Shown piece after piece: positions 22,459 to 51,275 of a stretch of DNA of 64,000 bases; within the stretch, counting starts at the first letter, position 1; every line of letters starts with the position of its first letter. The translations under genes and the position numbers were made by a program. This DNA is from Anaerolineae bacterium (GTDB lineage: Bacteria > Chloroflexota > Anaerolineae > S140-20), in assembly GCA_027021705.1 (NCBI GenBank), contig JALUTT010000005.1, positions 10,838 through 74,837 on the forward strand, read 5' to 3'. Under the pieces are notes generated by a model. The model did no database searches and was not told where the DNA came from. It saw only the letters and a list, made by a program, of their open reading frames with translations.

Positions 22459-22464
22459 CAGGAG

Positions 22465-28275: not shown

Positions 28276-30333
28276 ATGCGGATTCCACTCATCAGGCGTG
28301 AGCAGAACAGGAGAACAGAGGGGGCAAGCTGTCATAGTGGCCCTCAGGCTGACACCACCGGCCTGCCGCTGGTAGCCATCGTCGGCTGTCCCAACGTGGG
28401 CAAGAGCGTGCTGTTCAACGTTCTGACCGGCGCTTACGTCACCGTCTCCAACTATCCCGGCACCACCGTAGAAGTCTCGCGGGGCAAGGGCCGCCTCGAT
28501 GGCGTGGAGGTTGGCGTGGTGGACACGCCGGGTATGTATCGGCTGTTGCCCATCACCGAGGAAGAACGTGTGGCCCGCCGTATTCTGCTGGAGGAGCAGC
28601 CTGCCGTCGTCGTCCACGTGGTGGACACCAAGAACCTGGAGCGCATGCTGCCCATGACTTTACAGCTCATCGAGGCCGGTCTGCCCGTCATCCTGGACCT
28701 GAACCTGATGGACGAGGCCGAACGGCTGGGGGTGCAAGTGGACGCGGCTGCCTTGGAACGTGCCCTGGGAGTTCCCGTCGTGGCGACGGCGCTGGCCCTG
28801 GGTCGGGGGATAGCACCGCTCAAGGAGCGGATTGCCGCCTATGTCAGCGGCCCCTCCACCTCCAATCCATCCTCCACGCTCCAGACGGCGGTGCAGTACC
28901 ATCCCCTCATCGAAGAAGCCTTGGGGGAGATAGAGGAGCGGTTGCAAGGAACCTATCATCTGACGCGCCGGGCCGTGGCTTTGCTACTGCTACAGAACGA
29001 TGAGGAAGTCGTGTCGCTGGTGCAAAAGCAGGAAGGCCGGCACGCCGATGACATCTTGCACATCGCCGAGGCCGTGCGGGCACGCTTTAGCCGTCCCCTA
29101 TCCTACGTGATCGCTCGCAAGCATCAAGAAGTCGCCCGGAGCATCCTGGAACAGGTGATGATCCTGCCGGATCGTGCCCGCCAGGGTGAGCAGCGCCCCT
29201 CCAGCCTTGCCGAACGGCTGAGCGAGGCGATGATGAACCCGTTGACCGGCATCCCCATCTTGGTGCTTGCCCTCTTCCTGCTGTACGAGTTCGTCGGCGT
29301 GCTCGGGGCGCAGACGCTGGTGGACTTCCTGGAGGAGACGGTTTTCGGCACCTACATCAACCCGTGGGTGGACCAGATGCTGGCGGCGTTCATCCCCTGG
29401 CCGGCGGTGCGCGATCTCTTCGGCGGTCAGTACGGGATCATCACCCTAGGGGTTCGCTATGCCGTGGCCATCATCCTGCCCATCGTGGGGACCTTCTTCA
29501 TCGCCTTCTCCATCATCGAAGATAGCGGCTACCTGCCCCGCCTGGCTATGTTGATTGACCGGGTCTTCAAGCGGATCGGACTCAACGGGCGGGCGGTCAT
29601 CCCTATGGTGTTGGGCTTCGGTTGCGACACTATGGCCACCATCGTCACCCGCACGCTGGAGACGCGGCGCGAGCGGGTGCTCAGCACCCTGCTCCTGGCC
29701 CTGGCCATCCCCTGCTCGGCTCAGTTGGGGGTGATGCTGGGCCTGCTGGCCGGTCGGCCGGACTTGCTGGCGCTGTGGGCGAGCATCGTCGCCGGCGTGT
29801 TCCTGCTGGTAGGGTTCCTGGCCGCCCAGGTTATGCCGGGAGAGGGGCCTACGTTCTACATGGAACTGCCCCCGCTCCGTCGGCCTATGTTGGGCAACGT
29901 CCTGATCAAGACTTACACCAGGATGGAGTGGTACTTCCGCGAGGTCTTCCCTCTCTTCATCCTGGCCAGCGTGCTCATCTGGCTGGGCCGGTTGACCGGC
30001 CTCTTCGATCTGGCGGTGAGCGCGTTGGTGCCCCTGGTGCGATGGATCGGCCTGCCGGACAAGACGGCCGTCGCCTTCCTCTTTGGCTTCTTCCGGCGCG
30101 ACTACGGTGCGGCCGGCCTGTACGACCTGCGCGGGGTGATGAACGGCATGCAACTGCTGGTCGCCACGACGACCATGACCCTCTTCGTGCCCTGCATCGC
30201 CCAGTTCTCAGTGACCCTCAAAGAGCGAGGATGGAAGACAGCCCTGGCCATTGATGCCTTCATCTTCCCCTTTGCCTTCCTGGTGGGCGGCCTGCTCTAC
30301 CGGCTATTGATCGCGTTGGGCGTGACGCTATGA
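28276..30333 (+). CDS. feoB: Ferrous iron transporter B
   Basis: GCPNVGKS, NYPGTTVE, DTPG, NLMD, EDSGYLPR, GFGC, IPCSAQ, MELPP, FVPCIA. Confidence 0.93.
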   Translation: MRIPLIRREQNRRTEGASCHSGPQADTTGLPLVAIVGCPNVGKSVLFNVLTGAYVTVSNYPGTTVEVSRGKGRLDGVEVGVVDTPGMYRLLPITEEERVARRILLEEQPAVVVHVVDTKNLERMLPMTLQLIEAGLPVILDLNLMDEAERLGVQVDAAALERALGVPVVATALALGRGIAPLKERIAAYVSGPSTSNPSSTLQTAVQYHPLIEEALGEIEERLQGTYHLTRRAVALLLLQNDEEVVSLVQKQEGRHADDILHIAEAVRARFSRPLSYVIARKHQEVARSILEQVMILPDRARQGEQRPSSLAERLSEAMMNPLTGIPILVLALFLLYEFVGVLGAQTLVDFLEETVFGTYINPWVDQMLAAFIPWPAVRDLFGGQYGIITLGVRYAVAIILPIVGTFFIAFSIIEDSGYLPRLAMLIDRVFKRIGLNGRAVIPMVLGFGCDTMATIVTRTLETRRERVLSTLLLALAIPCSAQLGVMLGLLAGRPDLLALWASIVAGVFLLVGFLAAQVMPGEGPTFYMELPPLRRPMLGNVLIKTYTRMEWYFREVFPLFILASVLIWLGRLTGLFDLAVSALVPLVRWIGLPDKTAVAFLFGFFRRDYGAAGLYDLRGVMNGMQLLVATTTMTLFVPCIAQFSVTLKERGWKTALAIDAFIFPFAFLVGGLLYRLLIALGVTL

Positions 30334-30545
30334 GATGTGGATTCTGCGGTTACGAGTTCGACCCGGCCAATGCCGAGGCCGCCTGCAGCGGCTGTCCGCT
30401 GCTCGGTGACTGCCACCTGGTTCGCTGTCCGCGCTGTGGTTACGAGATGCCGCCGGAGGCAAAACTTGTGGGCTGGCTGCGTCGGCTGCGCCAGCGTAAA
30501 CGGGCCAAGAAAGCATCTTCACAAGGAGAGACTTCATGCAGTTGA
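30330..30545 (+). CDS. Small Cys-rich protein associated with feoB
   Basis: 7 Cys (CGFC, CSGC, C, CPRC); overlaps both neighbours. Confidence 0.7.
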   Translation: MRCGFCGYEFDPANAEAACSGCPLLGDCHLVRCPRCGYEMPPEAKLVGWLRRLRQRKRAKKASSQGETSCS

Positions 30546-31816
30546 GCGAGAGCGCTCAGGAGTTGCTGGAACTGTTATGGACCGCCATAGAGGAGGAGGC
30601 GAGGCCCGGCTTAGCCATCAAGAACCCGCCACCGGAGGGCCTCGATGAACTGATACAGGCACGCCTGGTTGAGCAAAATGGTGAATGGCTGGTCTTGACC
30701 CCGGCCGGTCGGCCCGAAGCGGCCCAGGCCGTGCGACGGCACCGGCTGGCCGAGCGGCTGTTGGCCGACGTGCTGACCACGGAGGAGGCCCGGTTGGACG
30801 AACACGCCTGTCGCCTCGAGCACGTCCTGGTTGACGGCGTGGACGAGAGCATTTGCACCCTGTTGGGACACCCGCGCTTCTGTCCCCATGGCAAGCCCAT
30901 CCCCCGAGGCAAGTGTTGCCAGCAGATGCGGGAATCGACGGAACGGCTGATCGCGCCGCTGTGCGACCTCCAGCCCGGCCAACGGGGGCAGATCGCCTAC
31001 ATCCAGATGAACAACCCCCGTCGTCTCCAGAAGCTCATGGCGATGGGTGTGCTGCCCGGGGTATCGGTCGAACTGCTACGGCGCTTCCCTTCATACGTAT
31101 TTGAAGCCGGCTACAGCCAATTCGCCGTGGACGAGGAGATCGCTTCCGCCATCTACGTTCGATTAGCCCACGAAGAGAAAGAGAAGGTGACCGAGATCAA
31201 GACCATCCCCAAAACGCTGGAGGCCAACATGAGCTCCGACCGTCTTGCCCGATGGACTTCCGTTCTCTTCGATAGCTCCGTGCTCTCCCTGTTCATCTTT
31301 CCGGCCATCGGATGGAAAGCGGCGGGGTGGAGCGGGGTTGGCTGGGCCGTCGTTGCCCTGCTCATCCTGACCGGGCTCCCCCTGGCCTACATCCTGATCG
31401 GGCTGCGCCGGGGCTGGGTGAGCGACCTGGAACTCAGTCGGCGCGAGGACCGCCCGCGCTTCATCCTGGTCAGCTTGAGCTGTGACCTGCTCGCCCTGGC
31501 GGTCCTGGGCTGGGGAGGTGCCCCGCGCCTGCTGTGGCTGCTGGCCCTGACCTACGCCTGCCTGGGCCTGACCATGTTCACCATCTCCAGCTTCTGGAAG
31601 ATCAGCCTGCATATGGTCAGCGTGGGCGGCTTCGCCACCGTGCTGGTCTACATCTTCGGCCTCGGCGCTCTGTGGACCTACCTGAGCCTGCCCCTGGTGG
31701 CCTGGGCACGCCTGTATCGCAAGAAGCACACGCCGGCCCAGCTCGTGGCCGGGGCCGTGGGGGGCATTCTCATCACCGCCGCCGTCTTCACCTGGGCGGG
31801 GGTAGGCGTCCGGTAG
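30536..31816 (+). CDS. DtxR-family dimerisation domain + FeoA domain, in frame with a multi-TM PAP2-like membrane domain
   Basis: RRHRLAERLL, ACRLEH, CPHGKPIP; FeoA-like KLMAMGVLPG; then WKISLH and HTPAQLVAG membrane domain from an internal ATG at 31229. Confidence 0.75.
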   Translation: MQLSESAQELLELLWTAIEEEARPGLAIKNPPPEGLDELIQARLVEQNGEWLVLTPAGRPEAAQAVRRHRLAERLLADVLTTEEARLDEHACRLEHVLVDGVDESICTLLGHPRFCPHGKPIPRGKCCQQMRESTERLIAPLCDLQPGQRGQIAYIQMNNPRRLQKLMAMGVLPGVSVELLRRFPSYVFEAGYSQFAVDEEIASAIYVRLAHEEKEKVTEIKTIPKTLEANMSSDRLARWTSVLFDSSVLSLFIFPAIGWKAAGWSGVGWAVVALLILTGLPLAYILIGLRRGWVSDLELSRREDRPRFILVSLSCDLLALAVLGWGGAPRLLWLLALTYACLGLTMFTISSFWKISLHMVSVGGFATVLVYIFGLGALWTYLSLPLVAWARLYRKKHTPAQLVAGAVGGILITAAVFTWAGVGVR

Positions 31817-31888
31817 TCCGATTCCGCAGAGCCTCTGCGCTCTCCCCGCCTCGGCGGTGGGGAAAGTGCGAAATGGAGGGTAGAAGGT

Positions 31889-32641
31889 GTGGTGATGGAC
31901 GCTTCGGACACTTCGAGAAAGAACATTCTCCTACAGATGGCCGGACTGGCGGGGGGCGTCGCCGCCCTCTGGCTGCCGCTCTTCGTCCTGCTCTTCTTCG
32001 GCCTGATGCCTGCGTTGGGACTGGACGTCAACCGGTTTGGTGACCCCGGCCACGTCCTGCCCTTCTTCGCCGACCATCCGGTCCTCATCCGGCTGGCCGG
32101 CCTGGTGAACGTCGTCGGGTTGACGGCGGCTGGCTTCTTCGGGCTCGTCCTGGCCCGGCAACTCTATCCGGCCGCGCCCGGCCCGGCGACGCTGGGCGGT
32201 TTCCTGACCCTCGTCGCCTGGCTCCTGATCCTGGTCGCCGAGGCGCTGGACCTGGCCGCCTACGTCAGCCTGCCCGCAACCTACGCCCGCGATCCGTCCG
32301 CCGCCGGGCTGGCCTTCGTCGCCTTGCAGACCGCCGGCCGCATGACCCGCACCTGGGGCTACCTGCTGGTCGGGCTGGGGGTCGGAGCTCTGGGCTGGGG
32401 CATGTCCCGCCAGGCCGGCTGGCCCCGTGGCCTCAGCCTCCTGGGAGTGCTCGGGGCGGCCGTCGGAGTGGTGATGTTCACCCTGGAGTACCTCTTTGTC
32501 ACCCAGACAGGGGATGCGGGGGGCGGCATGGCCCAGGTATTCACGGTGCTCTTCATCGCCACAGGGCTGATCGTCACCCTCTGGCACGCCTGGGGCGGAA
32601 TGCGGCTGGCGAGAGGCCACAACGAAACCTCGGAGGTCTGA
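31889..32641 (+). CDS. Multi-pass membrane protein (DUF4386-like)
   Basis: About six hydrophobic helices, WPRGLSLLG motif. Confidence 0.55.
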   Translation: MVMDASDTSRKNILLQMAGLAGGVAALWLPLFVLLFFGLMPALGLDVNRFGDPGHVLPFFADHPVLIRLAGLVNVVGLTAAGFFGLVLARQLYPAAPGPATLGGFLTLVAWLLILVAEALDLAAYVSLPATYARDPSAAGLAFVALQTAGRMTRTWGYLLVGLGVGALGWGMSRQAGWPRGLSLLGVLGAAVGVVMFTLEYLFVTQTGDAGGGMAQVFTVLFIATGLIVTLWHAWGGMRLARGHNETSEV

Positions 32642-32671
32642 CTGGTTATCGCACAGATTCAGGAGAGGCTA

Positions 32672-35206
<2,535 letters not shown>

Positions 35207-35238
35207 TCCGAGATACCCGAAACCAAGGAGCGGAGCGT

Positions 35239-35856
35239 ATGGCTACTCAGGTCTGTGGGCAGTGTGGAGCCCAACTGATACCAGGAGCCCGTTTTTGTCG
35301 GGTCTGCGGTGCGAAGACTAACCCATCGTCGTCCCGTTCGTCGAAGCGGCCCCGGAGCCGACGGCGCTCCCAGGCTCCGCGACGTCGGATCCTCACGCCC
35401 TTCACGCTGGTCGCGGCGGGCAGCCTCCTGCTCCTCGCGGTCGGCCTGCTCTTCTTGCTCGACCAGGAGCGTCCGGCGCCGGCGGCCAGCACCCTGCCCG
35501 ACACCCACGACGAGGAGGGCATCCCCTACCCGGAGGTGCCTCGCATCCCCTTGGCCGAGGCCAAGGCCCGCTTCGACAGCGGCACGGCGATCTTCGTGGA
35601 TGTGCGCACCCAGGGGGAGTACGAGACAGCTCACATCCCCAACGCCATCTCCCTCCCTCTGGCCGATCTGGAGGTCCGCTACCAGGAACTGCCCAGAGAT
35701 GCGGAGATCATCACCTACTGCACCTGACCGAACGAGGAGTCGAGCGCCCGTGCGGCGCGCATCCTGATGAGCAAAGGGTACACCAACGTCAAGGCGATCC
35801 TGGGCGGCTTCCGCGCCTGGCGAGAGGCGGGATACCCGGTCGCCAGCGGACCGTGA
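35239..35856 (+). CDS. Zinc-ribbon/TM/rhodanese selenoprotein (Sec at TGA 35725-35727)
   Basis: CGQC..CRVC ribbon, TM, DVRT..HIPNA, IITYCT-TGA-PNEESSARAA...ILGGFRAWREAGYP continues in frame and completes the rhodanese fold; SECIS-like hairpin 35744-35758. Confidence 0.8.
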
Positions 35857-35898
35857 GAAGACCGTCCATTCGTCCACCCATTCGCGAGGAGGAACGGT

Positions 35899-36324
35899 AT
35901 GAACCCTGCAGGACGCCTCTCAGCAGGGAGGTGGAGCCTGGGCCTCCTGGCCCTCGTGCTGGTCGTCGGCCTCCTGCTGACGGCCTGTGGCGGCTCTTCG
36001 CCGCGCATCGTCGTGGAGCCCCCGTCCCAGAACTTGGGGGAGGTGCCCCAAGAACCGCTGGAACTGACCTACACCGTCCGCAACGAGGGGGGCAGCCCCC
36101 TGCGGATCGAGAAGGTCAGCACCTCCTGTGACTGCACCCGGGCGACCGTGGACCGGGAGGTGATCCCCCCCGGCGAGTCGGCTCAGTTGCGCGTAGTGCT
36201 CGACCCGACTGAGGAGAACCTGTACGGGAACCTGCTGCGGGTCATCTACATCCGCAGCAACGATCCCGACAACCCGGAGGTCGAAGTGGAGTTCCGGGTC
36301 ACCATCCTCAAGCCGGAGGAGTAG
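35899..36324 (+). CDS. DUF1573-like Ig-fold lipoprotein
   Basis: Lipobox LTAC, NEGGSPLRI, TSCDCT, IPPGES, SNDP. Confidence 0.8.
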   Translation: MNPAGRLSAGRWSLGLLALVLVVGLLLTACGGSSPRIVVEPPSQNLGEVPQEPLELTYTVRNEGGSPLRIEKVSTSCDCTRATVDREVIPPGESAQLRVVLDPTEENLYGNLLRVIYIRSNDPDNPEVEVEFRVTILKPEE

Positions 36325-36329
36325 GGGCG

Positions 36330-37046
36330 ATGATCTTCCGACGCTGGCTGGAGAAGCTGGCCGGGAGCAACACCCTCTACTACCCCGGCTGCGTGACCCA
36401 CTACGCCCTGCCGGAGATCGAAGGCCGCTATGAGGCACTGCTGCGCCAGGCCGGCGTGGACTTCATCATGCTGCCCGGCGAGACCCTCTGCTGCGGCAGC
36501 CCGGTCAAGCGGGCGGGCTACCTGGCCGACTTCGAGACGCTGAAGGCGAAGAACCTGGAGGTCTTCGCCCGCTTCAGCGTGCGCAGGATCATCACCAACT
36601 GCCCGGGATGCTACCACACGCTGAAGCACGATTACGGGTTGGAGACCTACCACGTGACCCAGGTGCTGGCCGACCGCCTCCCCGGTGGTGAGCAAGCCAC
36701 TTCTTCCCCGTCCATCACCTACCACGATCCCTGCCACCTGGGGCGCTGGTCCGGGGTATACGACGAGCCCCGCCGGCTGTTGGCCGAGGCGGGATGGACG
36801 GTGACCGAACTGCCCGACAACCGGGAGCAGAGCCTCTGTTGCGGTGCAGGCGGCGGGGTCAAGGCCAACTTCCCCGAACTGGCGAATGCCATCGCCCGCC
36901 AGCGGCTGGCCCTGGTGGAGAACGGCCGGCTATGTACCGCCTGTCCCCTCTGCTATGCCCACTTCAAGGAAAACGCCGACGGCGTCGAGGTGCTGGAGCT
37001 GAGCCAGGCCCTCGCCCTGGGGCCGGGAGGGGAGGGAACGCGATGA
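36330..37046 (+). CDS. CCG-domain Fe-S protein (GlcF/HdrD C-terminal-like)
   Basis: YYPGC, LCCGSP, TNCPGC, YHDPCHLGR, LCCGAGGG, TACPLC. Confidence 0.88.
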   Translation: MIFRRWLEKLAGSNTLYYPGCVTHYALPEIEGRYEALLRQAGVDFIMLPGETLCCGSPVKRAGYLADFETLKAKNLEVFARFSVRRIITNCPGCYHTLKHDYGLETYHVTQVLADRLPGGEQATSSPSITYHDPCHLGRWSGVYDEPRRLLAEAGWTVTELPDNREQSLCCGAGGGVKANFPELANAIARQRLALVENGRLCTACPLCYAHFKENADGVEVLELSQALALGPGGEGTR

Positions 37047-38218
37047 ACCTGGCAAGCCTGTCGGCCCTCGTCGGCGAAGCGAACATCTCCACGACGGTCG
37101 AGGACCGGATCGTCTACAGCCGGGACGCCTCCCGGCTGGAGGGGGAGTGCCTGGCCGTCGTCTGGCCATCCCACCCCGAGCAGGTGGCCGGCCTGGTCGC
37201 GTGGGCGGAAGCGGAGGACGTGGACCTGGTGCCCCGGGGAGCGGGCACCGGCCTCTGCGGCGGGGCCACCCCCCAGCGTTCGGTGGTGGTGGACCTGTCG
37301 CGGCTGACCCGGATCGGCCCTGTGGACGCGGAGCAGCGCCGGGTGCAGGTGGAGGCAGGCGTCGTCTTGGGGAGCCTCAACCGCCGTCTGGCCCCTCACG
37401 GCCTCTTCCTCCCCGTCATCCCCGGCAGCCACCGGGCCTCCAGCGTCGGCGGGATGATCGCAACCGACGCGGCGGGGCTGCGGGCCGTCCGCTACGGCAC
37501 GATGGCCGACTGGGTGGAGGAGGTCACCTTGGTGGACGGCCTGGGGCGCTGGCACCACCTCACCGGCGAGGCCCTGCGCGACGCGGTGGGCCGGGAGGGG
37601 GTGACAGGCTTCGTCGTCGAAGCGGTCCTGCGGCTGGCCCCCCGACCGGCGCAGCGCACCCTCTCCCTGGTGGCTTTTGACGATCTGGCGGCGCTGCTGG
37701 CCCAGCGGGACCGCTGGCTGGCCGACCCCCGGCTCACCGCCCTGGAGTACCTCAACCGTCACGCGGCCGAGGCCATCGGTTGGGAGGCCCGGCCCCACCT
37801 CCTGGCCGAGTTCGACTCCGACGGCGGGGAGATCGGCGACCCCGATCGCATCGCCGCCCTGTGGCAAGCCCGCGACGGCCTCTACCCGGTGCTGGCCCGC
37901 CGGGGCTACCCCGTCATCGAGGACCCCCAGATCGAGGGGGAGGGGATGGCCGCCCTGCTGGCCTGGCTGGAGGCCGAGGGCATCCCCACCTTCGGGCACC
38001 TGGGCGTGGGGATCGTGCACCCCTGCTTCAGCGCCGACGACGAGCGGGTCGCCGCCTTGTACGAGCGAGTGGCAGCGGAGGGTGGTCGGGTGAGCGGGGA
38101 GCACGGCATCGGCCTGAAGAAGAAAGCCTGGACCGATGCCGCCTTCCGGGCCGAGGTGCAGCGGCTCAAGGCACAGTACGACCCCCACCACCGTATCAAC
38201 CGAGGGAAGCTATGCTGA
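37043..38218 (+). CDS. FAD-linked oxidoreductase (GlcD-like)
   Basis: PRGAGTGLCGG, SVGGMIAT, GHLGVGIVH, SGEHGIG, YDPHHRINRGK. Confidence 0.88.
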   Translation: MNLASLSALVGEANISTTVEDRIVYSRDASRLEGECLAVVWPSHPEQVAGLVAWAEAEDVDLVPRGAGTGLCGGATPQRSVVVDLSRLTRIGPVDAEQRRVQVEAGVVLGSLNRRLAPHGLFLPVIPGSHRASSVGGMIATDAAGLRAVRYGTMADWVEEVTLVDGLGRWHHLTGEALRDAVGREGVTGFVVEAVLRLAPRPAQRTLSLVAFDDLAALLAQRDRWLADPRLTALEYLNRHAAEAIGWEARPHLLAEFDSDGGEIGDPDRIAALWQARDGLYPVLARRGYPVIEDPQIEGEGMAALLAWLEAEGIPTFGHLGVGIVHPCFSADDERVAALYERVAAEGGRVSGEHGIGLKKKAWTDAAFRAEVQRLKAQYDPHHRINRGKLC

Positions 38219-38565
38219 GGGAACTGGCCGAGAACCCACCCTGCATCGAATGCGGTCTCTGTCGGGAAGTCTGCCCCGTCTTCACCATCCTGCGCCAGGA
38301 GCGGATCAGCCCCCGGGGGCTGGCCATCCTGGCCGACCGGGGCATCGCCTCGGTGGTCTTCTATCAGTGCACGCTGTGCCGGGCCTGCCGGGTGGTCTGC
38401 CCCGTGGGCCACGACCCGGCCGGGGAGCAGGTACGCGCCCAGGTGGTCGCCCAGGGGGTGGAGACGGAGGCCAACCGGACGATGATCGAGAACATCCGCA
38501 AGTACGGCAACCCCTTCGGGCCGCTGGAGGAAGGGGAGATCCCGAAGACGCTCACCTGCTGCTAA
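38212..38565 (+). CDS. 4Fe-4S dicluster protein (GlcF/HdrC N-terminal-like)
   Basis: CIECGLCREVCP, SPRG, CTLCRACRVVCP, GNPFG, C-terminal TCC. Confidence 0.85.
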   Translation: MLRELAENPPCIECGLCREVCPVFTILRQERISPRGLAILADRGIASVVFYQCTLCRACRVVCPVGHDPAGEQVRAQVVAQGVETEANRTMIENIRKYGNPFGPLEEGEIPKTLTCC

Positions 38566-38576
38566 GAAGACCTACG

Positions 38577-38699
38577 ATGGATACACGCTATGGAGAGTAT
38601 CTACCGGGCCTCTTGAATGCCCTGGCCGGCTTGGCCGTTCTGCTCGTTGGGTCCCTGGTGGATACACCCTTCCCTTCGCCAAAGGAGATGCGGAGATGA
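38577..38699 (+). CDS. Possible 40-aa single-TM peptide
   Basis: Fills the gap, overlaps the cupin start (ATGA), hydrophobic core LLNALAGLAVLLVGSLV; weak RBS. Confidence 0.3.
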   Translation: MDTRYGEYLPGLLNALAGLAVLLVGSLVDTPFPSPKEMRR

Positions 38700-39085
38700 C
38701 CCAGGAGACGAACCCTTTCTTCGTTAACCCGGCCAATGCCCCCAGAATCACCCAGATGCCGGGGCTCGAGACGACCATCCTTACCGGCCTTCACGGCGAA
38801 AAGATGATGATGGTCCTCAGCGCGACACTGCCCGGCCACACCGTGCCGATGCACTCCCACCCTCACGAACAGATCGGGATGGTGTATGCGGGCAAAGCTG
38901 TGTTGCGCATTGGGGACGAAGAGCGAATCGTGCAAAAGGGGGATTTCTACTGCATCCCCGCCAATGTTCCCCACGGGGATACCTGCATAGGTGATGAGCC
39001 TTTTGTGATGCTGGACATCTTCTACCCCGTGCGCGAGGATTTCATCGAAAAACTCGAACAGGCATCAGGAACACACAAAGGGTAA
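38696..39085 (+). CDS. Cupin domain protein
   Basis: PMHSHPHEQ, IPANVPHG, DIFYPVREDF. Confidence 0.9.
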   Translation: MTQETNPFFVNPANAPRITQMPGLETTILTGLHGEKMMMVLSATLPGHTVPMHSHPHEQIGMVYAGKAVLRIGDEERIVQKGDFYCIPANVPHGDTCIGDEPFVMLDIFYPVREDFIEKLEQASGTHKG

Positions 39086-39092
39086 GAAGCAT

Positions 39093-40292
39093 ATGAAAGC
39101 GCTGCTGCGACTGGTTCTGGCACTGATCACGCTGTGGGCATTGTCCACGGTGACCCAGGCCCAGGAGCCCGAACGCCAAGCCGTCGTCTACTACAACGAA
39201 GCCTGCGACGAGTGTGCCACCTACGTCGAGGGCGAGCTGGCGGAGATCATGGCCGCCTACCAGATCCGCCTGGTGAAGAAGGACTACATCAACCGGCGGG
39301 AGCACCGGCGGGAACTGAACGAGCTGAACGACCGGCTGGGCGTGCCCCTGGACCTGCAGAGCCACCTGGCCACCTACATTGACGACGGGCGCATCATCCT
39401 GCAGGGCGAGCCGCCCCGGCACGTGGTGGAGGCCCTCCTGGCACCGACGGCCAAATTGCCGGAGCGGATCCTGGTCTACGCCGAGGAGGGGAAACAGGAG
39501 AGCTATCGGGTGTGGGCCTTCGCCGGCCCCGTGAAAGACTACCCCGCCGACACACCCATCGAGACCTACCTGACCTGGTTCGAGGCCAATCGCGACACCT
39601 TCGCGGAGAGCAAGGAGCCGGCCCCCCTGCTGCTCCCGGTGGTCCTGCTCACCGGCCTGGTGGATGGGATCAACCCCTGCGCCCTCGCCATCCTGCTCTT
39701 CTTCGTCTCCTTCCTGTTCACCATCCGCAAGACGCGGGTCTCGGTGGCTCAGATGGGAGCCGTCTACATCGGCGCAGTCTACGTGGTCTACTTCCTCATC
39801 GGGCTGGGGCTGCTGCGGGCTTCGACCCTGCTGCGGGGACACTGGCTGGGCCAGGCCGGGGCAGCCCTGCTCGTCCTGTTGGGCCTGACCAACCTGCTGG
39901 GCGCCCTCTTCCCCAACTTCCCCATCCGCCTGGAGGTGCCCGAGGGGAGCAAGGAATCGCTGCAGAAGTGGATGTACCGGGCCACCCTCCCCACCACCCT
40001 GATCCTGGGCACCCTGGTGGGGCTGCACACCTTCCCCTGCTCCGGCGGCCCCTACGTGGCGGTGCTGGGGCTGCTGGCCAGCCAGACCGGCTTCTGGGAG
40101 GGGATCGCCTACCTGGTGCTCTACAACCTGATGTTCGTCCTCCCCCTCGTCGTTGTGCTCATCCTCTCGCTGGACCCGGTGCTGGGCGGCAAGATCCGGG
40201 CCTGGGAGCGCTCCTCGTCGCGCACGGTGCGGGGGGTGACCGGCGGGGTAATGGCCGCTCTCGGCCTTGGCCTGCTGATCTGGGTGCTGTAA
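39093..40292 (+). CDS. Thioredoxin-like (CxxC) domain fused to a CcdA/DsbD-beta-like membrane domain
   Basis: Signal peptide, ACDEC, then DGINPCALA and FPCSGGPY transmembrane cysteines. Confidence 0.8.
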   Translation: MKALLRLVLALITLWALSTVTQAQEPERQAVVYYNEACDECATYVEGELAEIMAAYQIRLVKKDYINRREHRRELNELNDRLGVPLDLQSHLATYIDDGRIILQGEPPRHVVEALLAPTAKLPERILVYAEEGKQESYRVWAFAGPVKDYPADTPIETYLTWFEANRDTFAESKEPAPLLLPVVLLTGLVDGINPCALAILLFFVSFLFTIRKTRVSVAQMGAVYIGAVYVVYFLIGLGLLRASTLLRGHWLGQAGAALLVLLGLTNLLGALFPNFPIRLEVPEGSKESLQKWMYRATLPTTLILGTLVGLHTFPCSGGPYVAVLGLLASQTGFWEGIAYLVLYNLMFVLPLVVVLILSLDPVLGGKIRAWERSSSRTVRGVTGGVMAALGLGLLIWVL

Positions 40293-40340
40293 AAGCGAAG
40301 TGCTGGAAGTCACCGTAAGTCAAGTCAAGGAGGAAACGAA

Positions 40341-41060
40341 GTGGCAGCACGGAAGAAGCGACGGAAGCGAGCCCGAAGGCTCCAATCCCGGGCGCGTCCC
40401 CGGCCCACGCGGGGCCGCACCTGGCTGCGGGGGCACGGATGGCTCATCGGCCTGATCGCCCTGCTGCTGGTGGGCGGCATCGGTGCAGTCTTCCTGATCC
40501 AGCGGGGAACCGAGGACACCCCGCCGAGTGAGGAAGTGAGCCTGGACAAGAGCAAGGGGGCCGCCGATGCCCCGGTGGTGGTGGTGGAGTACGGGGATTT
40601 CCAGTGACCTTACTGCCGGCTTTTCGCCACCGGCGCGGAGCGTCGGCTCGAGGAGGAGTTCGTCAGCCAGGGTAAAGTGCGCTTCGTCTTCCGCCATTTC
40701 GCCTTCATCGGCGACGAATCCCGTTGGGCGGCAGAAGCTTCGGAGTGCGCCAACGAACAGGGCCGTTTCTGGGACTACTACGACAAGCTTTTTGAAGAGC
40801 AATCTGGTGAGAACGTCGGCACCTTCGGCAAGGAGAACCTGAAGCGCTTTGCCGCCGAGTTGGGCCTGGATACCGAGCGGTTCAACCAATGCCTCGATTC
40901 AGGCCGCTATCAGACGAAGGTGCAACAGGAGCTGATCGAGGGCCGCCAGAAGGGTGTTCGCGGCACCCCGACCCTCTTCGTCAACGGACAGCTCATCGAG
41001 CGTGGCGGGGACTACCAGGTGCTCCGGGCAGCTATTCTGGCTGCGCTGGGCGATCGGTAG
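40341..41060 (+). CDS. Membrane-anchored DsbA/BdbD-like selenoprotein (UxxC; Sec at TGA 40605-40607)
   Basis: ORFs 40341-40607 and 40677-41060 share a frame: EYGDFQ-TGA-PYC...GKVRFVFRHF...AAEASECA..QGRFW...GTPTLFVNG; SECIS-like stem 40630-40646. Confidence 0.88.
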
Positions 41061-41272
41061 GTTCCTGCAGGAGGCTGCGGGAACCCTTTCCTCCCTTCCA
41101 GCGTCTAGGGAACAGACGCCCAAGTCTGCTCCGGGTGACGCCTATTCGTGCCCCATTCGCGGAGGGCCCATCTTCCTACCTTGTTGGCGCAGCCGGCGAA
41201 ACAGGGGTACCATCGGGTCGTCACCCGCAGATGGATCACCCGGATGCTGGATGTGCAAGGAGGGAAGTCCCG

Positions 41273-44200
41273 ATGACGACGCAACGGTCTCGCCGCTGGA
41301 TCGCTCTGGGAGGCCTGGTCACCATCGCCCTGATCGCGATGGTCGCCGGCCTGGCTCGGCGGGGGCAACCGTCTGCCTCCCCTACCCCCTCTTCGGTTCC
41401 CATCGTCCTCCAGACGGCCACGCCTCGTCCATCACCCACGCCGCTGCCCACGCCCCCGCCGGTGGGCTACACCCCTGTCCCGCCGGACACGGTGCCGGCC
41501 CTCGTCATCCAGCGCAGCCCCGAGGCGGGCCGAGAACTCCCCCTCGACGGCACCATTGAGCTGGTCTTCGACCGCCCGATGGATCCGCAGACCGTCGAGG
41601 CGGCCCTCCGGTTCTACCCGCCTGTGGAGGGCACCCTCCGGTGGGTGGATCGGCGCACCCTCCGCTTCCGGCCCAGCACCCCCCTGCAGCGGGGAGCGGT
41701 CTACGATCTGGTGCTGACCCAGGCCGCCCGCGCCGCCGACGGCGCTCCCCTCAACCAGGCCTATCGCTTCCGCTTCCAGACTGTGGGCTTCTTGGAGGTC
41801 GCCCAGGTGGTCCCCGCCGACGGCACCCAGGAGGTGGACCCCGCCAGCGCCACCATCACCGTCCTCTTCAACCGGCCCGTCGTGCCCCTGAAGGCGCTGG
41901 AGGAGCAGGGGGACCTCCCCCAGCCCCTCACCCTTTGCACCGGCGACCCCTGCACCCCCGTCCCCGGCCACGGGGAGTGGGTGAACACGTCCATCTACCG
42001 CTTCGTGCCCGAGGGACCGCTGGCCGGCGGCACCGTCTACACCGCCCGCATCGCCGCCGGCCTGACCGACACCACCGGCGGCCTCCTGGCCGAGGACTTT
42101 GTCTGGCACTTCGCCACGGCCGCCCCCCAGGTCGTCCAGGTCTCCCCCGCCGACGAGTCCGCCCTGGTCCCGGTGGACCGCCCCATCATCGTCCGCTTCA
42201 ACCAGCCGGTGGACCCGGCCTCGGCCCAGGCCGCCTTCCGCATCAGCCCGGCCGTCGTCGGCACCTTCCAGGTGCTGACCGACACGCTGACCTTCACGCC
42301 CACCCAGCCGATGGCCTTCGACACCACCTACCAGGTGACGGTCGAGGCCGGCGTCACCAGCGCGGCCGGCGGCCGGGGGATGGCTGCGCCCTACCGCTGG
42401 CGCTTCAGGACGGTCCCCTTGCCGCGCATCCTCGACACCAAGCCCCGCGACGGCGAGGAGGCTGCCGACCCCTACGCCCCCTTCCAGATCCGCTTCAACG
42501 CGCCCATTGACCCGGCCACCGTGATGCCCAACCTCACGGTGACACCTCCTCTCTCGCCCACCCAGGTCTACACCTACTTCAACCCCTCGGACAACACCTT
42601 CGTCCTCTACTTCGGGGCGGAGCCCTCCACCGACTACGAGGTGCGCATCGGCCCCCACATCGCCGACCCTTACGGCAACGAGACGGGCCAGTCCCTCACC
42701 GTCCGCTTCCGCACCGCCCCCCTGGAGCCCGAGGTCCGCCTCTTCACCCCCGGCGTGGGCACCTACAGCGCCTACCGACCGGCCCGCCTCTACATCCAGG
42801 CGCTCAACGTCTCCCGCCTGGAGGCCCGTCTCTACCGCCTGGACCTCGACCGGATGATCCCTTCCCTGTCGAAGGGGTGGTACGACTTCACCCCGCCCGA
42901 TTCCGCCCTCCTGCGCCGGTGGTCCCAGCCCGTCGAGGCCCCCCAGAACAAGGCGGTCTTCCAGCGGCTGGACCTGAGCGAGGATGGGGGGCCGCTGCCT
43001 GCCGGCCTCTACTGGTTGGAGGTGTCGGCGCCGGAACTCCCGCCCGACCGCTGGCGACGGGTGCGGCTCCTGCTCGTCGTCACGCCCGTCAATCTGACCC
43101 TCAAGGCGAGCCCCCGTGAGGTCCTCGTCTGGGCCACGGACCTGGCCACCGGCGAGCCCGTCGCCGGGCTTCCCCTCACCCTCTACGGACGCGAAGGGGA
43201 GGTCATCGCCCAGGCCACGACCGACGGGCAGGGGCTGGCCACCATCGCCCGGCCTGCCCGGACGGAGGGCTACGGCCTGTGGGTGGTGAGCCGCGAGCCC
43301 TTCAGCGCCGCCAGCACCGACTGGGGCATGGGCATCAGCCCCTGGGACTTCGGGCTGGAGCCGGGGTACGGGATGGCGGCCTACCGCGTCTACGTCTACA
43401 CCGACCGTCCCATCTACCGACCCGACCAGACTGTCCACTTCCGGGGCATCGTCCGGGCCGAGGAGGACGTCCGCTACAGCCTCCCCGCCGGCCTGCGGCA
43501 GGTCCACGTGACCGTGCGAGATGCCGCCTACGAGGTGGTCTACGAGGAGACGCTTCCCCTCAGCGAATTCGGCACCTTCCACGGTGAGGTGGCGCTCTCC
43601 CCCACGGCCGCCCTAGGCCAGTACATCATCGAGGTCACCTTCCAGGACCAGGGGTACAGCACCAGCTTCCTGGTGGCCGCCTACCGCCCACCCCAGTTCG
43701 AGGTGACGGTCACGCCCGATGCCCCGGAGATCGTCCAAGGTCAGGGAACTTCGGTGACGGTGGAGGCCCGCTACTTCTTCGGCGCTCCCCTGACCAACGC
43801 CCCTGTGGAGTGGAACCTGCTGGCCGAGACCTACCGCTTCCAGCCCCCTTGGGGCGGACGCTACCGCTTCAGCGACCCCGACGATCCGTGGGTCTGCTTC
43901 GACTGCTGGTGGTGGCGGGAGCCCCCGGTGCCGGAACCGATCCTCAGCGGTCAGGGCCGGACCGACGCCCAGGGCCGGCTGGTCATCACCCTGCCGGAGG
44001 CGCTCCAGTGGCCCGACGGCCGGCCCATCACCACCAGCGTCCGCCTCACCCTGGAGGCCACCGTCACCGGCCCCGACAACCAGGTGATCGCCGGCCGGGG
44101 GGAGATCATCCGTCACCAGGGCCGCTTCTACATCGGCCTGGCCCCCCGCCGGTACGTGGGCGAGGCCGGCCGGGAGATGAGCGTGGACCTGGTGGCGGTG

Positions 44201-47200
44201 GACTGGGAGGGGAACCGACTGCCCGGCCAGGAGATCGTCGTCCAGGTCTCCCGGTGCGAGTGGATCAACACCTTTGTCGAGGAGCCGGGAGGTGGGCACT
44301 GGGAGTGGGAGACCCGGGAGACGCCCATCACCACGGTCACCGTCACCACCGACGGACGGGGGGAGGCCGTCGTCAACTTCACGCCCCCGGAGGGAGGCTC
44401 CTACCACGTCGTGGCCCTGGGGAAGGACGAGGGAGGGCGCACCGTCCGATCCGGCCTCTTCCTCTGGGTCAGCGGACCGGGCTACGTCTCCTGGCGGCGG
44501 GAGAACCACGACCGCATCACGCTGATCACGGACAAGAGCAGCTACCGGCCCGGCGAGACGGCCGAGATCCTGATCCCCTCCCCCTTCCAGGGGCCGCACT
44601 GGGCGCTGGTGACGGTTGAGCGGGGCACCCTCCGCCGCTACGAACTGGTCCGTATGGAGAGCAACAGCCAGGTCTACCGGCTGCCCCTCACCGCCGAGGA
44701 CGTGCCCAACGTCTACGTCTCCGTCGTGCTGGTCCAGGGGGAGGAGGCCACCGGACGGGCGGCCGACTACAAGGTGGGCTACGTGCCCTTGACCGTGGAG
44801 CCGGTGCCTCAGACCCTGCGGATCACGCTGACCCCCGACCGGGAACAGGCCGGGCCGGGGGAGGCGGTGCGCTACCGGGTTCGGGTGACGGACGCCGAGG
44901 GGGAGCCGGTCCGGGCGGAGCTCTCGCTGGACCTGGTGGACAAGGCGGTGCTGAGCCTCCAGCCCCGCGAGCCGGAGGCCATCGTTCAAGCCTTCTACGG
45001 CCGGCGTCCCCTGGCGGTGCAGACGGCCAGCGGCCTGGCCCTCGCCCTCAACCGGATGGTGCCCCAGGAGGTCGAGGAGCAGGTACGAGAGGTCAAGACG
45101 GTCGCCCAGGAGGAGGTCCTCCCGGCGGCCCCGGCTCCTACCGAAGGGCCGATGGAGAGGCCGGGGGCGGTCGAGAAGATGGCGGAAGCCGAGACCTTGG
45201 CCGCTGCACCACCGCCGGAGGTGAACGTCCGCCAGGAGTTCGCCGACACCGCCTTCTGGCAGCCCGACCTGGTGACCGACGAGCGGGGAGAGGCGGAGGT
45301 GACGGTGACGCTGCCCGACAACCTGACCACCTGGGTGATGCGGGGTGTTGGCCTGACGGCGGAGACCCAGGTGGGCGAGGCGACGGTGGAAGTGGTGGCG
45401 ACGAAGCCGCTCCTGATCCAGCCGATCACGCCCCGCTTCTTCGTCGTCGGCGACCGGGTGGCCCTGGCCGCCACCGTTCACAACAACACGGACCAGACCC
45501 AGGAGGCGACGGTCACCCTCTACGGCAGCGGCGTCACGCTGGACACGGAGCGCACCCCCGGCCCGGAGCAGCGGGTGACGCTGCCGGCCGGCGGCGAGGC
45601 CAAGGTGACCTGGTGGGTGACGGTGGAAGATGCCCTCTACGCCGACCTCACCTTCGTCGTCCGGGGGGATGGCTACGAGGATGCCAGCAAGCCCCGGCTG
45701 GCGACCGGCCCCGACCAGACGCTGCCCATCTACCGCTACAGCGTGCCCGAGGTGGTGGCGACGGGTGGGCAACTGGAGGCGGCCGGCTCCCGCACCGAGG
45801 TGATCGCCCTCCCCCCACGATACAACGACCGCCAGGGGGAGCTGACGATCCGCCTGGACCCCTCACTGGCGGCGGCGACACGGGAGGGGCTGCGCTACCT
45901 GGAGCGCTTCCCCTACGAGTGCACCGAGCAGATCGTCTCCCGCTTCCTGCCCAACGTCCTGACCTACCGGACGCTGCGGAAGCTGGGGATCGCCGATCCT
46001 GAGCTGGAGGCCCGGCTGCCCGCCCTGGTCGAGGAGGGGCTGGAGAAGCTCTATCGGCGGCAGAACGAGGATGGGGGCTGGGGCTGGTGGCCCGACGACG
46101 AAAGCAACCCCACCCTCTCCGCCTACGTCCTCTTCGGGCTGCTCCAGGCCCAGGAGGCCGGCTTCCCCGTCCGGGACGACGTGCTGGAGCGGGGGCTCAC
46201 CTACTTGGAGGCGCAGGTGGAGCCGGCCCGCCGGCTGGAGGCGAGCGCCCAGGCCAACCGGCAGGCTTTCTTCCTCTTCGTCCTGGCCGAGGCGGGCCGG
46301 CCCGACGAGGCGGCGATGGATGCCCTCTTCCGGCGGCGGGAGATGCTGGGCCTCTACGCCCGCGCCTACCTGGCGATGGGGCTGGGCCGGGCGGCGGGGG
46401 CCGAGGACCCGCGCGTCACCACCCTCCTCTCCGACCTGAACAACGCCGTCATCCTCAGCGCCACGGGAGCCCACTGGGAGGAGCGGGAGGTGGACTGGTG
46501 GGCGATGAACACCGACACCCGCTCGACGGCGATCATCCTGGAGGCGCTGGTGCGGCTGGACCCGGAGAACGGGCTGCTGCCCAACGTCGTCCGCTGGCTG
46601 ATGGTGGCCCGGCGGGATGGGCACTGGGAGACGACCCAGGAGACGGCCTGGGCGCTCATCGCGCTGACCGACTGGATGGCGCGGACAGGAGAGTTGGAAG
46701 GGGCTTACGACTATGCCCTCTGGCTGAACGATGAGGAGCTGGCGACAGGGACGGTGACCCCGGCAACGGTGGACGAGCCGGTGACGTTGCAGGTGGCGGT
46801 GGCCGATCTGCTGCGGGATGTGGGGAACCGGCTGACGGTGGCCCGGAGCGAGGGGCCGGGCCGGCTCTACTACACGGCGCACCTGCGGGTCTTCCTCCCC
46901 GTCGAGGAGGTGGAGCCACTGGACCGGGGGATCATCGTCCGTCGGCGCTACACCCTGGCCGACTGCGAGGAAGGCCCCGCCTGTCCCGACGTGCGGGAGG
47001 TGCGGGTGGGCGATGTGATCCGGGTGGACCTGACCATTATCGCGCCCAACGACCTCTACTACGTCGTCGTCGAGGACCCGCTGCCGGCGGGGGCGGAGGC
47101 GATTGACACGGGGCTGGCGACGACGAGCCTGCTGGAGGGCGGGCCGGCCCTGCGCCGTCGGACGGAGCGGGGGGCGTGGTGGGAGTCCTTCTACGCCTGG

Positions 47201-48542: not shown

Positions 48543-48744
48543 CGCTCCTGCGCCGGCACCCTGATGACCTACCAGGTCATCATCCTCCAGCCCGTGCGGG
48601 AGCAGCTTGATCAATTACCCCAACACGTTCGTGGCAGGACCCTCAGGGGCATCGCCGCCCTAAAGGGGAATCCACGCCTCCGTGGCCATAGACCGAAAGG
48701 CCACGAGAACGCAGATCGTATCCGAGGCAGAAAAGGGGGCTGAG

Positions 48745-49227
48745 ATGAGCCGTGGGAATGGTGCCATTGACCTCTCCCCGATGGAGGAGGTTTTCGCCCG
48801 ATATGCCGATCAACCCAACGCCCTGATCCCTATCTTGCAGCAGACTCAGGCGCTCTACGGCTACCTGCCGAGGGAGGCCCTGGAACGGATCGCGGAGAGG
48901 CTGCGAATCTCCCTGGCCAAGGTCTACGGCGTGGCCACCTTCTACGCCCAGTTCTACCTGGAGCGCCGGGGAAGACACGTGCTCAAGCTGTGCGATGGGA
49001 CGGCCTGCCACGTGAAAGGGACACCCACCCTGCTGGTGGCCGTCGAGGAGGAGTTCAACATTGGTCCCGGTGAGACGACGGAGGACGGTCAACTGACCGT
49101 GGAGATCGTCTATTGTCTGGGCTCCTGCGCGCTGGCCCCCGTCGCCGTCCTTGACGAGCGCGTGATGGGTCGGATGCGACCGGAGATGCTGGTACGCCGG
49201 GTGAAACGGCAGATCGGGGCCCGATAG
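48745..49227 (+). CDS. NuoE/HydC-like 2Fe-2S subunit of the formate dehydrogenase complex
   Basis: YGVATFYAQF, CDGTACHVKG, CLGSCALAP. Confidence 0.9.
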   Translation: MSRGNGAIDLSPMEEVFARYADQPNALIPILQQTQALYGYLPREALERIAERLRISLAKVYGVATFYAQFYLERRGRHVLKLCDGTACHVKGTPTLLVAVEEEFNIGPGETTEDGQLTVEIVYCLGSCALAPVAVLDERVMGRMRPEMLVRRVKRQIGAR

Positions 49228-49351
49228 TCTCCCCCGGGCAGTGAAGCCCTCGGGCGTTCTACAAGGGATGCCCGCCGGGCCTGTGGCTGCGCGAAGGGGG
49301 AGGCCGCCGGAGCGACCCGGTCGCCCTTCGACCTCGCGAAAGGAGAGCCAG

Positions 49352-51256: not shown

Positions 51257-51275
51257 CCGCGGGAGGGTGAACGCG

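Follow-up and report, generated by a model that had tools for sequence, protein, structure and literature searches.

The locus considered here, eight genes in a 64,000-nucleotide stretch of an Anaerolineae bacterium (contig JALUTT010000005.1, positions 10,838 to 74,837; hereafter the window), raises the question of why genes for a cytoplasmic iron-sulfur (Fe–S)/flavin module should lie among genes for exported proteins with close pairs of cysteine (Cys) or selenocysteine (Sec). In reading order, the genes encode a rhodanese, a DUF1573 lipoprotein, a protein with two CCG domains, a flavin adenine dinucleotide (FAD) protein, a 2x[4Fe-4S] ferredoxin (Fer4), a cupin, a fusion of a CopG/DUF411-like domain to a CcdA-like membrane domain (the fusion protein) and a DsbA-like protein. 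They are contiguous and co-oriented, and Pfam bears out all eight identities that an earlier note had read from the sequence. The arrangement is more than chance, because gene order recurs in other genomes and both in-frame TGA codons of the cluster are conserved or alternate with Cys codons. We favour, with a probability of about 0.5, a reading in which the cluster would form a transmembrane thiol/selenol redox relay tied to heavy-metal efflux, of which we infer the direction and the substrate. Its role would probably be to keep the metal-handling sulfur and selenium groups at the cell surface in working order.

Conservation of the gene neighbourhood

Eighty related loci (L with a number) were retrieved with an alignment of the fusion protein (220 pattern matches, 86 of them confirmed and 80 kept), and the window proteins were placed on these loci by tblastn. 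Their sources include bins labelled Bellilinea, Levilinea and Leptolinea. Forty-four loci, referred to as A-type, share a fusion protein identity of at least 59% and lie on Chloroflexota-type contigs without exception; the remaining 36 are referred to as other loci. Counts for each gene are restricted to loci with sufficient flanking sequence. On this basis, the A-type loci hold the CCG gene in 36/36 cases, the FAD gene in 36/37 (the miss being L060) and the Fer4 gene directly upstream of the fusion gene in 40/40, and the corresponding counts for the other loci are 0/25, 0/29 and 1/33, the single case (L054) being really A-type. The DsbA-like gene follows downstream in 35 of 38 A-type and none of 30 other loci, and the rhodanese gene is present in 25 of 32 and none of 24, respectively. 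The DUF1573 gene lies upstream in both groups, with 34/34 A-type loci (within ~4.5 kb) and 32/33 other loci (within 2.6 kb).

The order rhodanese, DUF1573, CCG, FAD, Fer4, fusion gene, DsbA-like gene recurs across the Chloroflexota loci, and the fusion proteins linked to the CCG/FAD/Fer4 trio form one clade (39 rows; Shimodaira–Hasegawa-like approximate likelihood ratio test, SH-aLRT, 100; stem of 1.4 changes per site). The earlier note had considered that its modules might never co-occur elsewhere; they are found together in many genomes. The universal core, which is ancestral, consists of DUF1573 and the fusion protein. This pair occurs also in archaea, Patescibacteria and other phyla (Thermoplasmatota, Hydrothermarchaeota, Woesearchaeota, Bipolaricaulota and Fraserbacteria), often near P1B metal ATPases and beside copper pumps. 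The trio and the selenoproteins are Chloroflexota additions, and the core of archaea and Patescibacteria presumably runs on thioredoxin.

Two companions of the core were seen in Patescibacteria and Woesearchaeota: one membrane protein in which a thioredoxin-like CxxC repeat occurs three times (L068:3111-4205), and a second, small membrane protein that contains CCAHH and that Pfam does not match (cluster c33, e.g. L072:8899-9396).

The cupin, which the earlier note had counted among the components, is not conserved: tblastn finds it in 0/80 loci (E <= 1e-5), and we dropped it from the operon as a guest gene. The same slot between the Fer4 and fusion genes holds a different open reading frame (ORF) of 195 amino acids (aa), DJ-1/PfpI-like by eye, in L002 and nothing recognisable in L003. 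In L060 (844-2493) a degenerate operon was found, with CCG and Fer4 fragments between the DUF1573 and fusion genes and no FAD gene, a state that arose by natural deletion or through faulty assembly.

Selenocysteine in the rhodanese and DsbA-like proteins

Pfam matches run through the in-frame TGA of both the rhodanese gene (Rhodanese, residues 106-196, E 9e-20) and the DsbA-like gene (Thioredoxin_4, residues 73-232, E 4e-35), and protein conservation persists downstream of both codons. Thirty tblastn hits extend over the rhodanese position, and 28 of them have TGA there, within YCT*P[NSAQ]EESSA; the two remaining hits are unrelated ordinary rhodaneses (YCRSGG, 30-34% identical) elsewhere in their loci. 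Cys relatives of the rhodanese exist as full-length proteins with YCTCPNEESS and as DedA-rhodanese fusions with YCTCPNE[AV]SAA. In the DsbA-like protein, the position is TGA (UP[YWG]C) in six tblastn hits and TGC or TGT in 36.

Each TGA is followed by a hairpin resembling a selenocysteine insertion sequence (SECIS). The DsbA-like hairpin begins 25 nt past the U of the TGA; in seven TGA-type genes all 49 cells are paired, including one compensatory C-G/U-A pair, and 45 of 126 cells pair in the same columns of 18 distinct Cys-type orthologues. In the rhodanese gene, a 5-bp upper stem begins 19 nt past the U and is invariant in 17 distinct sequences (98.8% of cells paired, no covariation among them); the hairpin codons AGC GCC CGT GCG GCG are frozen, whereas neighbouring four-fold codons vary. 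Additionally, an FdhA-type gene with the motif HCARLUHSAT lies in the same window, from which it follows that the organism decodes Sec.

That both TGAs are plain stops, and the genes pseudogenes or truncated, is very improbable in view of the TGA kept in 28 loci with coding conservation continuing past it, the Cys found at the same codon in homologues, the restriction of the hairpin to TGA forms and the Sec-type FdhA of the window. What speaks for plain stops is that gene callers routinely truncate both genes, that most close database entries of the rhodanese break off at the TGA, with a coverage of 59-61% of the region queried, that single-sequence folding of the 66 nt behind each TGA does not beat shuffled sequences in energy (z 0.95 and 0.03), and that Rfam has no match at E <= 1 over positions 30000-42000. 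The two Sec assignments, made already in the earlier note, can on such comparative grounds be taken as settled, short of protein chemistry.

The FdhA gene (51267-54119, + strand; alpha subunit of a formate dehydrogenase of the NAD type, with Fer2_4, NADH-G and Molybdopterin) is a third selenoprotein gene of the window, which gene calling splits at the TGA at 52437-52439. A strong hairpin lies behind this TGA, and NuoE-/NuoF-like genes lie upstream at 48682-51256.

The rhodanese protein is predicted to have its zinc ribbon in the cytoplasm and, past one transmembrane (TM) helix, its rhodanese domain outside, the active-site loop of which reads C-T-U. The protein has the CxU motif of NCBIfam NF041203 (rhodanese_LYCAU) and, at 85.9 bits (cut-off 115), is by its score a relative and not a member of that family. 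The DsbA-like protein begins with a basic stretch and a TM helix, not a lipobox. Its nearest named NCBIfam relatives are DsbG and the DsbG-like NF041057 (132.8 bits, cut-off 190), and it contains UPYC, xPYC being the motif of DsbG and ScsC.

Away from the operon, L038 holds a second cluster (15423-19672, - strand), in which a DsbA-like gene and a canonical CcdA gene are accompanied by a rhodanese gene of this family that also contains a TGA. In L007-L028 and L033 (e.g. L018:6397-6678), the rhodanese gene is directly preceded by a conserved ORF of ~93 aa for a small membrane protein that has CC and CxxC motifs and lacks a Pfam match; it was seen in 21 Chloroflexota-type loci and does not occur in the window, which has the ATPase at this position.

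The DUF1573 protein and the fusion protein

The DUF1573 protein (Pfam DUF1573, E 3.6e-17) has the lipobox LTAC and would be mature from C30. In 56 sequences, S76, C77, C79 and T80 (S-C-x-C-T) are invariant. Its AlphaFold2 model shows a confident immunoglobulin (Ig)-like fold, with a predicted local distance difference test (pLDDT) of 88.4, for which the best Foldseek match is 2qsv, a P. gingivalis protein of unknown function (E 8e-8), followed by generic PapD/HYDIN Ig-like folds.

The fusion protein has a signal peptide, an external domain (C38-x-x-C41, H91) with a putative CopG/DUF411-like thioredoxin fold and a six-helix CcdA-like membrane domain, and C38, C41, H91, C196 (NPC) and C316 (FPCSGG) are invariant in 56 sequences. 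In its AlphaFold2 model the external domain reaches pLDDT 85-92, and six long helices are kinked at N-P-C196 and F-P-C316. The top four Foldseek matches of residues ~28-170 are CopG chains (6wis/6wje; TMt 0.56-0.61, probability 1.00, E 1e-2 to 3e-2), and that of the membrane domain is CcdA 5vkv; in an hmmsearch, C196 and C316 of the two P-C motifs line up with the CcdA cysteines of 5vkv. Pfam DUF411 has no match in the window protein itself; among 56 family members, 24 match DUF411 (best E 3.4e-4), 31 match DsbD_TM (E <= 1) and 36 match SfLAP. The external domain alone is represented by 138 representative clusters among 1.84 billion proteins.

Single chains that join DUF1573, CopG-like and CcdA-like parts occur in Bipolaricaulota and Fraserbacteria bins (L075:1123-2757, L076:9548-11173 and L078:9509-11155), and five database proteins of 527-556 aa have DUF1573 ahead of the CopG-like domain, four of the five weakly matching the SfLAP membrane model. 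Co-folding of fusion protein residues 27-172 with DUF1573 residues 31-141 gave a score of 0.44 (best of three controls, 0.01), with runs agreeing in at least 94% of contacts and a partner pLDDT of at least 88, which lends weak support to a contact. Of 157 solved complexes, 116 came up to the co-fold mark, as did 2 of 215 mismatched pairs; with scores of 0.60 or below, just 18 of the 157 and both mismatches did so, counts that apply roughly to our runs, made with alignments that we built ourselves.

The cytoplasmic Fe–S/flavin trio

The CCG protein is without a signal peptide and matches Pfam CCG in two stretches (E 2e-31). Its PDB sequence hits are 9ojn (4e-24) and HdrB chains, and its NCBIfam matches TfrB, LdhH and diclust_near_Sec each stay below cut-off. 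The FAD protein matches Pfam FAD_binding_4 (5e-38) and FAD-oxidase_C (4e-16), with D-lactate dehydrogenase (D-LDH) 8jdc (2e-29), LctD and glycolate oxidase as PDB relatives, and its sequence contains an H-x6-H...GEHG motif. The ferredoxin is HdrC-like and resembles also the N-terminus of GlcF (Pfam Fer4_8, E 7e-13). All NCBIfam matches of the trio fall far below the equivalog cut-offs.

The ferredoxin ends in two cysteines, with a tail ...PK.L[TY]CC-stop in 41/41 tblastn hits. Among 100 database homologues, 94 end in CC, the others being one 187-aa fusion, four proteins of 78-111 aa and one that ends in TFC. The members of this Fer4-CC family (100 hits at 55-89% identity, 96 of them at 65-89%) are all from Chloroflexota where the source is named, and several agree with fusion-protein hits in the length of the longest contig.

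The trio genes are tightly packed: the start of the FAD gene overlaps the stop of the CCG gene by 4 nt, and the Fer4 gene overlaps the FAD gene by 7 nt. Throughout the eight genes, the intergenic gaps are -7, -4, 5, 7, 42 and 48 nt, with 130 nt before the cupin.

A proposed relay and its alternatives

Four modules, each with a close chalcogen pair active toward metals or in redox chemistry, are encoded in the cluster: CopG-like CxxC, DUF1573 CxC, rhodanese CxU and DsbA/DsbG-like UxxC (CxxC in relatives). The exofacial location that the earlier note had given to them is supported. We propose that the flavoprotein would oxidise a D-2-hydroxyacid and that electrons would pass from FAD through the 2x[4Fe-4S] clusters to the CCG clusters, which would reduce the Cys-Cys arm of the ferredoxin in the way that DsrK reduces the C-terminal arm of DsrC. 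This arm would, in thioredoxin's place, reduce the membrane pair C196/C316, which in turn would reduce the external CxxC domain, and the latter would keep DUF1573, the DsbG-like protein and the rhodanese reduced. The reduced exofacial proteins could then bind or hand on the thiophilic metals expelled by neighbouring P1B ATPases, or repair the damage that these cause. Tight linkage and family chemistry suggest that the flavin/Fe–S module may reduce the CcdA-like protein, and the reducing direction is favoured because the nearest curated relatives of the DsbA-like protein are DsbG-like and the GlcD/D-LDH relatives of the flavoprotein oxidise substrates. A bolder version, tentative and somewhat doubtful as a whole, would see here a thioredoxin-independent, substrate-driven transmembrane disulfide reductase, in which a D-2-hydroxyacid dehydrogenase/HdrBC-like complex reduces the CopG-CcdA fusion directly via the Cys-Cys-COOH arm of the ferredoxin, wiring central carbon oxidation to Sec-based metal defence outside the membrane, with DUF1573 as the long-sought client or partner of the widespread core.

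Several observations weigh against the proposed relay. Electron flow, its direction and the contact between the Fe–S module and the membrane protein are what we infer. The membrane part of the fusion protein is modelled at low confidence (pLDDT 40-70), its hmmsearch match to CcdA 5vkv is weak (E 0.17), and it scores 18.9 bits with Pfam DsbD_TM, below the cut-off of 27.1, with SfLAP scoring similarly. An ArsG efflux-permease model matches the same domain at E 8e-5, so that this domain may instead act as a transporter. A Cys-Cys-COOH end is also the mercury-acquiring arm of MerA (PMC12874090). The FAD protein scores 145.8 with the GlcD model TIGR00387, far below the cut-off of 567.9, and its C-terminal domain is matched in part by Pfam. 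A canonical CcdA gene stands beside the DUF1573/fusion pair in 12 loci (L006, L032, L038, L041, L042, L063-L068 and L079), which argues against the fusion protein being simply 'the' CcdA. P1B ATPases are linked in only about half of the loci (22/44 A-type, 15/36 other). Moreover, the loci cannot be counted as independent samples. Identity is 99.96-100% within the pairs L020/L024, L034/L036 and L015/L018 and, across 16 kb with the flanks included, 93-95% among L007-L011 and L025; of 74 fusion-protein rows, 63 are distinct. A promoter and terminator scan, with no promoters and five terminator-like sites against 4.4 expected, is uninformative on co-transcription.

The same parts could be read in other ways. 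In Mer systems MerT passes metal inward and the tail of MerA takes it over, and HgcB, too, has a C-terminal vicinal Cys pair. A comparable inward relay is unlikely here; in it the external Cys/Sec pairs would capture a soft metal (Hg(II) or Cu, for example), the membrane cysteines would pass the metal inward, the CC arm would accept it and the Fe–S/CCG/FAD module would reduce it. Such a relay would suit the close Cys/Sec pair borne by each component, the ArsG permease match, the setting in a metal-ATPase island and the canonical CcdA of 12 loci, by which the fusion protein may act otherwise; a C-terminal vicinal Cys pair also defines MerA (PMC12874090). It is at odds with the finding that no MerA, MerT or MerP homologue is present among the operon proteins (Pfam, NCBIfam), with the disulfide chemistry, not metal reduction, for which CCG clusters are known, with the core that lacks a reductase in archaea and Patescibacteria, and with the neighbouring pumps, which export metals, so that import fits oddly. 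Rather unlikely, and slightly more so than metal import, is an oxidative pathway running in reverse, a DsbB/VKOR substitute for anaerobes in which the DsbA-like protein would make disulfides and be re-oxidised via the fusion protein, the electrons leaving through the CC arm, CCG, Fe–S and FAD to a cytoplasmic acceptor. The DsbA-family fold and the reversibility, in principle, of thiol-disulfide relays would allow it, and no DsbB or VKOR was seen in the fetched loci, where neither was systematically searched for. To our knowledge, however, all characterised CcdA and DsbD proteins carry electrons outward; the closest curated relatives are DsbG-like, the rhodanese and the CxC lipoprotein require reduced thiols, and the GlcD/D-LDH relatives act as substrate oxidisers.

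We consider it quite improbable that the cluster serves chalcogen trafficking, with the Sec-rhodanese carrying persulfide or perselenide and the relay reducing polysulfide, thiosulfate, selenite or tellurite at the surface, where sulfide or selenide would perhaps precipitate exported metals. The rhodanese fold does keep its catalytic Cys, and CcdA-type SoxV with thioredoxins serves sulfur oxidation; but the rhodanese is missing in 7/32 A-type and 24/24 other loci, its active-site loop PNEESS is acidic and not the basic anion cradle of sulfurtransferases, and no Sox, Psr or Phs genes were seen in the window or among the neighbours in related loci. Improbable to the same degree is that there is no single system at all and that a GlcDF-like hydroxyacid dehydrogenase merely lies between unrelated envelope genes. 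The placement of Fer4 directly upstream of the fusion gene in all 40 A-type loci, the overlapping start and stop codons inside the trio, the Fer4-CC family found in this lineage only, and the single, long-stemmed clade of trio-linked fusion proteins speak against a mere juxtaposition, even though in other phyla the core pair does without the trio and the slot between the Fer4 and fusion genes takes foreign genes (the cupin; the 195-aa ORF of L002).

Relation to known systems

The membrane domain, with one Cys in each of two P-C motifs, is like that of DsbD/CcdA and of the copper-tolerance pair ScsB–ScsC. As in DsbD and ScsB, an external redox domain is fused N-terminally, a DsbA/DsbG-fold protein is the likely client and metal stress is the association. 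The external domain differs, being CopG/DUF411-like and not of the DsbD-alpha or ScsB type; the fusion protein falls below the Pfam DsbD_TM cut-off, and a dedicated flavin/Fe–S/CCG module would stand in thioredoxin's place, with selenoproteins and DUF1573 among the clients. In structure, the external domain comes closest to CopG, and its neighbourhood in archaea and Patescibacteria contains copper ATPases. CopG is, however, reported to have a CxCC motif with His/Met copper-cluster ligands, whereas the fusion protein has CxxC with an invariant H91 and is joined to a membrane domain, the Foldseek E value being 1e-2 only.

Like HdrBC and GlcD/GlcF, the trio has a pair of CCG domains, a ferredoxin of the dicluster kind and a flavoprotein that may be related to GlcD; with DsrK/DsrC it would share a flexible Cys arm at a C-terminus, on which the CCG site may act. 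Unlike in HdrBC and GlcDF, the subunits are split, their order is CCG-FAD-Fer4 and a CcdA-like protein is the putative partner in place of cytochrome b; unlike in DsrC, the ferredoxin itself bears the arm, whose end is Cys-Cys-COOH. The Mer system likewise has Cys pairs that lead in a chain from outside to a cytoplasmic redox enzyme, and a vicinal C-terminal Cys pair. Neither Pfam nor NCBIfam shows homology of the operon proteins to those of Mer, and the operon enzyme is of an Fe–S/CCG/FAD kind of PCMH type and not, as MerA is, a pyridine-nucleotide disulfide oxidoreductase.

Several predicted selenoprotein families of these folds are already catalogued (PMC13188914, PMC9312934): rhodanese form 3 (NF041203, CxU), DsbG-like (NF041057, UxxC), DsbA-like (UxxC) and DUF1573 (UGC). 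They share folds and Sec positions or motifs with the window proteins, which score below the cut-offs (85.9 vs 115, 132.8 vs 190, 50.5 vs 100); in addition, the window DUF1573 is a Cys form and the DsbA-like protein has a TM anchor in place of a lipobox. The TsoB system, judged from model names and one review table, is similar in concept, combining a rhodanese and a DsbD-like membrane domain with selenoproteins, and NF045663 is a CCG/dicluster flavoprotein model named as near selenoprotein genes. Homology to both is remote (TsoB, 34.7 bits vs a cut-off of 805; NF045663, 89.7 vs 530), and TsoB has UxxxxU where the window rhodanese has CxU.

The statement of the earlier note that no described system has this composition consequently stands in part: the single selenoprotein families are known, and the assembly appears new within the literature searched. 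This literature, which did not include Haft & Gwadz 2023 and Haft & Tolstoy 2025, contained nothing on DUF1573 joined with CcdA, nor on CcdA joined with CCG/HdrD/GlcD modules; DUF1573 by itself is mentioned in four of its papers. If the proposed outward relay is true, it would give a first functional context to DUF1573, to the CopG/DUF411-like domain and to CxU/CxC rhodaneses, would show that an envelope thiol relay can be driven in a new manner, by a dedicated Fe–S flavoenzyme replacing thioredoxin, and would explain the retention of Sec in exported proteins of anaerobic Chloroflexota. A function for the core of DUF1573 and fusion protein, once found, would annotate many uncultured lineages.

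Genomic and metal context

The features of the locus are collected in Table 1. The P1B ATPase gene that precedes the cluster stops 32 nt short of the rhodanese gene, with which it may be co-transcribed; its product scores 627 bits with NCBIfam ATPase-IB_hvy, above the cut-off, with ZntA-like proteins as best hits.

Table 1. Position of the operon genes, Sec codons, hairpins and two neighbouring genes in the window
Feature	Position	Strand	Remarks
ArsR-family gene	22024-22392	+	sole one of the window; 13 kb upstream of operon; directly precedes SPC-motif P1B ATPase (22024-24852 region)
P1B heavy-metal ATPase gene	32672-35206	+	Pfam E1-E2_ATPase/Hydrolase/HMA; two HMA domains, CPC motif, C-terminal DxG
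Rhodanese gene	35239-35856	+	zinc ribbon, one TM helix, rhodanese domain; ends at TGA 35854-35856
Sec codon TGA, rhodanese U163	35725-35727	+	motif YCTUPNEESS
SECIS-like hairpin, rhodanese	35736-35765	+	upper stem-loop GCGCC-CGUGC-GGCGC at 35744-35758 over weaker lower stem
DUF1573 lipoprotein gene	35899-36324	+	Pfam DUF1573; SCDCT motif
2xCCG protein gene	36330-37046	+	Pfam CCG, two stretches
FAD_binding_4/FAD-oxidase_C protein gene	37043-38218	+	Pfam
2x[4Fe-4S] ferredoxin gene (Fer4)	38212-38565	+	Pfam Fer4_8 and others; ends ...TLTCC
Cupin_2 protein gene	38696-39085	+	Pfam; in the gap between Fer4 and CcdA-like genes
CxxC domain + CcdA-like fusion gene	39093-40292	+	399 aa
DsbA-like Thioredoxin_4 protein gene	40341-41060	+	Pfam
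Sec codon TGA, DsbA-like U89	40605-40607	+	motif UPYC
SECIS-like hairpin, DsbA-like	40630-40646	+	7-bp stem, GGA loop

The metal-homeostasis genes of the window run, in order, from a CopA-like ATPase with a DUF166 gene through ArsR with a second ATPase, MacB/FtsX and FeoB to a DtxR/MntR-like regulator, DUF4386 and the ZntA-like ATPase, which the operon follows. The control by ArsR envisaged in the earlier note does not agree with this layout, the one ArsR gene lying far upstream before a different ATPase (Table 1), and ArsR was dropped as the local regulator. Across the related loci, the P1B ATPase motifs are CPC, YN and MxxSS in archaea and Patescibacteria, which we take to be of the copper type; in Chloroflexota they are CPC with DxG, which we take to be of the Zn/Cd type, SPC or APC. 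Recurrent neighbours include ArsR pairs beside the ATPases, signal peptidase II (LspA), an S-adenosylmethionine-dependent (SAM) methyltransferase, DUF302, a CopY/BlaI-like repressor, the thioredoxin-like membrane protein with three CxxC repeats, and canonical CcdA.

Recent horizontal transfer, prompted as an explanation by the near-identical loci, was dropped: the identity spans the whole 16-21 kb including the flanks, so that these loci belong to close relatives or to contigs that are duplicates or wrongly binned. No island signature emerges from the composition profile, with a G+C content of 0.64-0.74 throughout, and ARAGORN finds no tRNA in the 64-kb window. In L034 (compared with L036), L035, L069 and L070, identical or nearly identical contigs of Chloroflexota or Patescibacteria type sit in bins labelled Verrucomicrobiota, Methylomonas or Gammaproteobacteria; these are probably mis-binned, and taxon labels that rest on a single contig need care.

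The CopA-like ATPase at 17251-20529 (+ strand) has two HMA domains and is followed by the DUF166 protein, which is without an in-frame stop; DUF166 is among the predicted selenoprotein families in the review table of PMC9312934. The DtxR/MntR-like repressor at 30536-31816 (+ strand; Fe_dep_repr_C and FeoA) is much extended at its C-terminus, where PAP2 is weakly matched, and DtxR-like genes flank the operon also in L002, L004, L005, L017, L026 and L035. Two very large alpha-2-macroglobulin-like proteins are encoded at 3-2936 (- strand) and 41264-47422 (+ strand), the second beginning ~200 nt after the DsbA-like gene.

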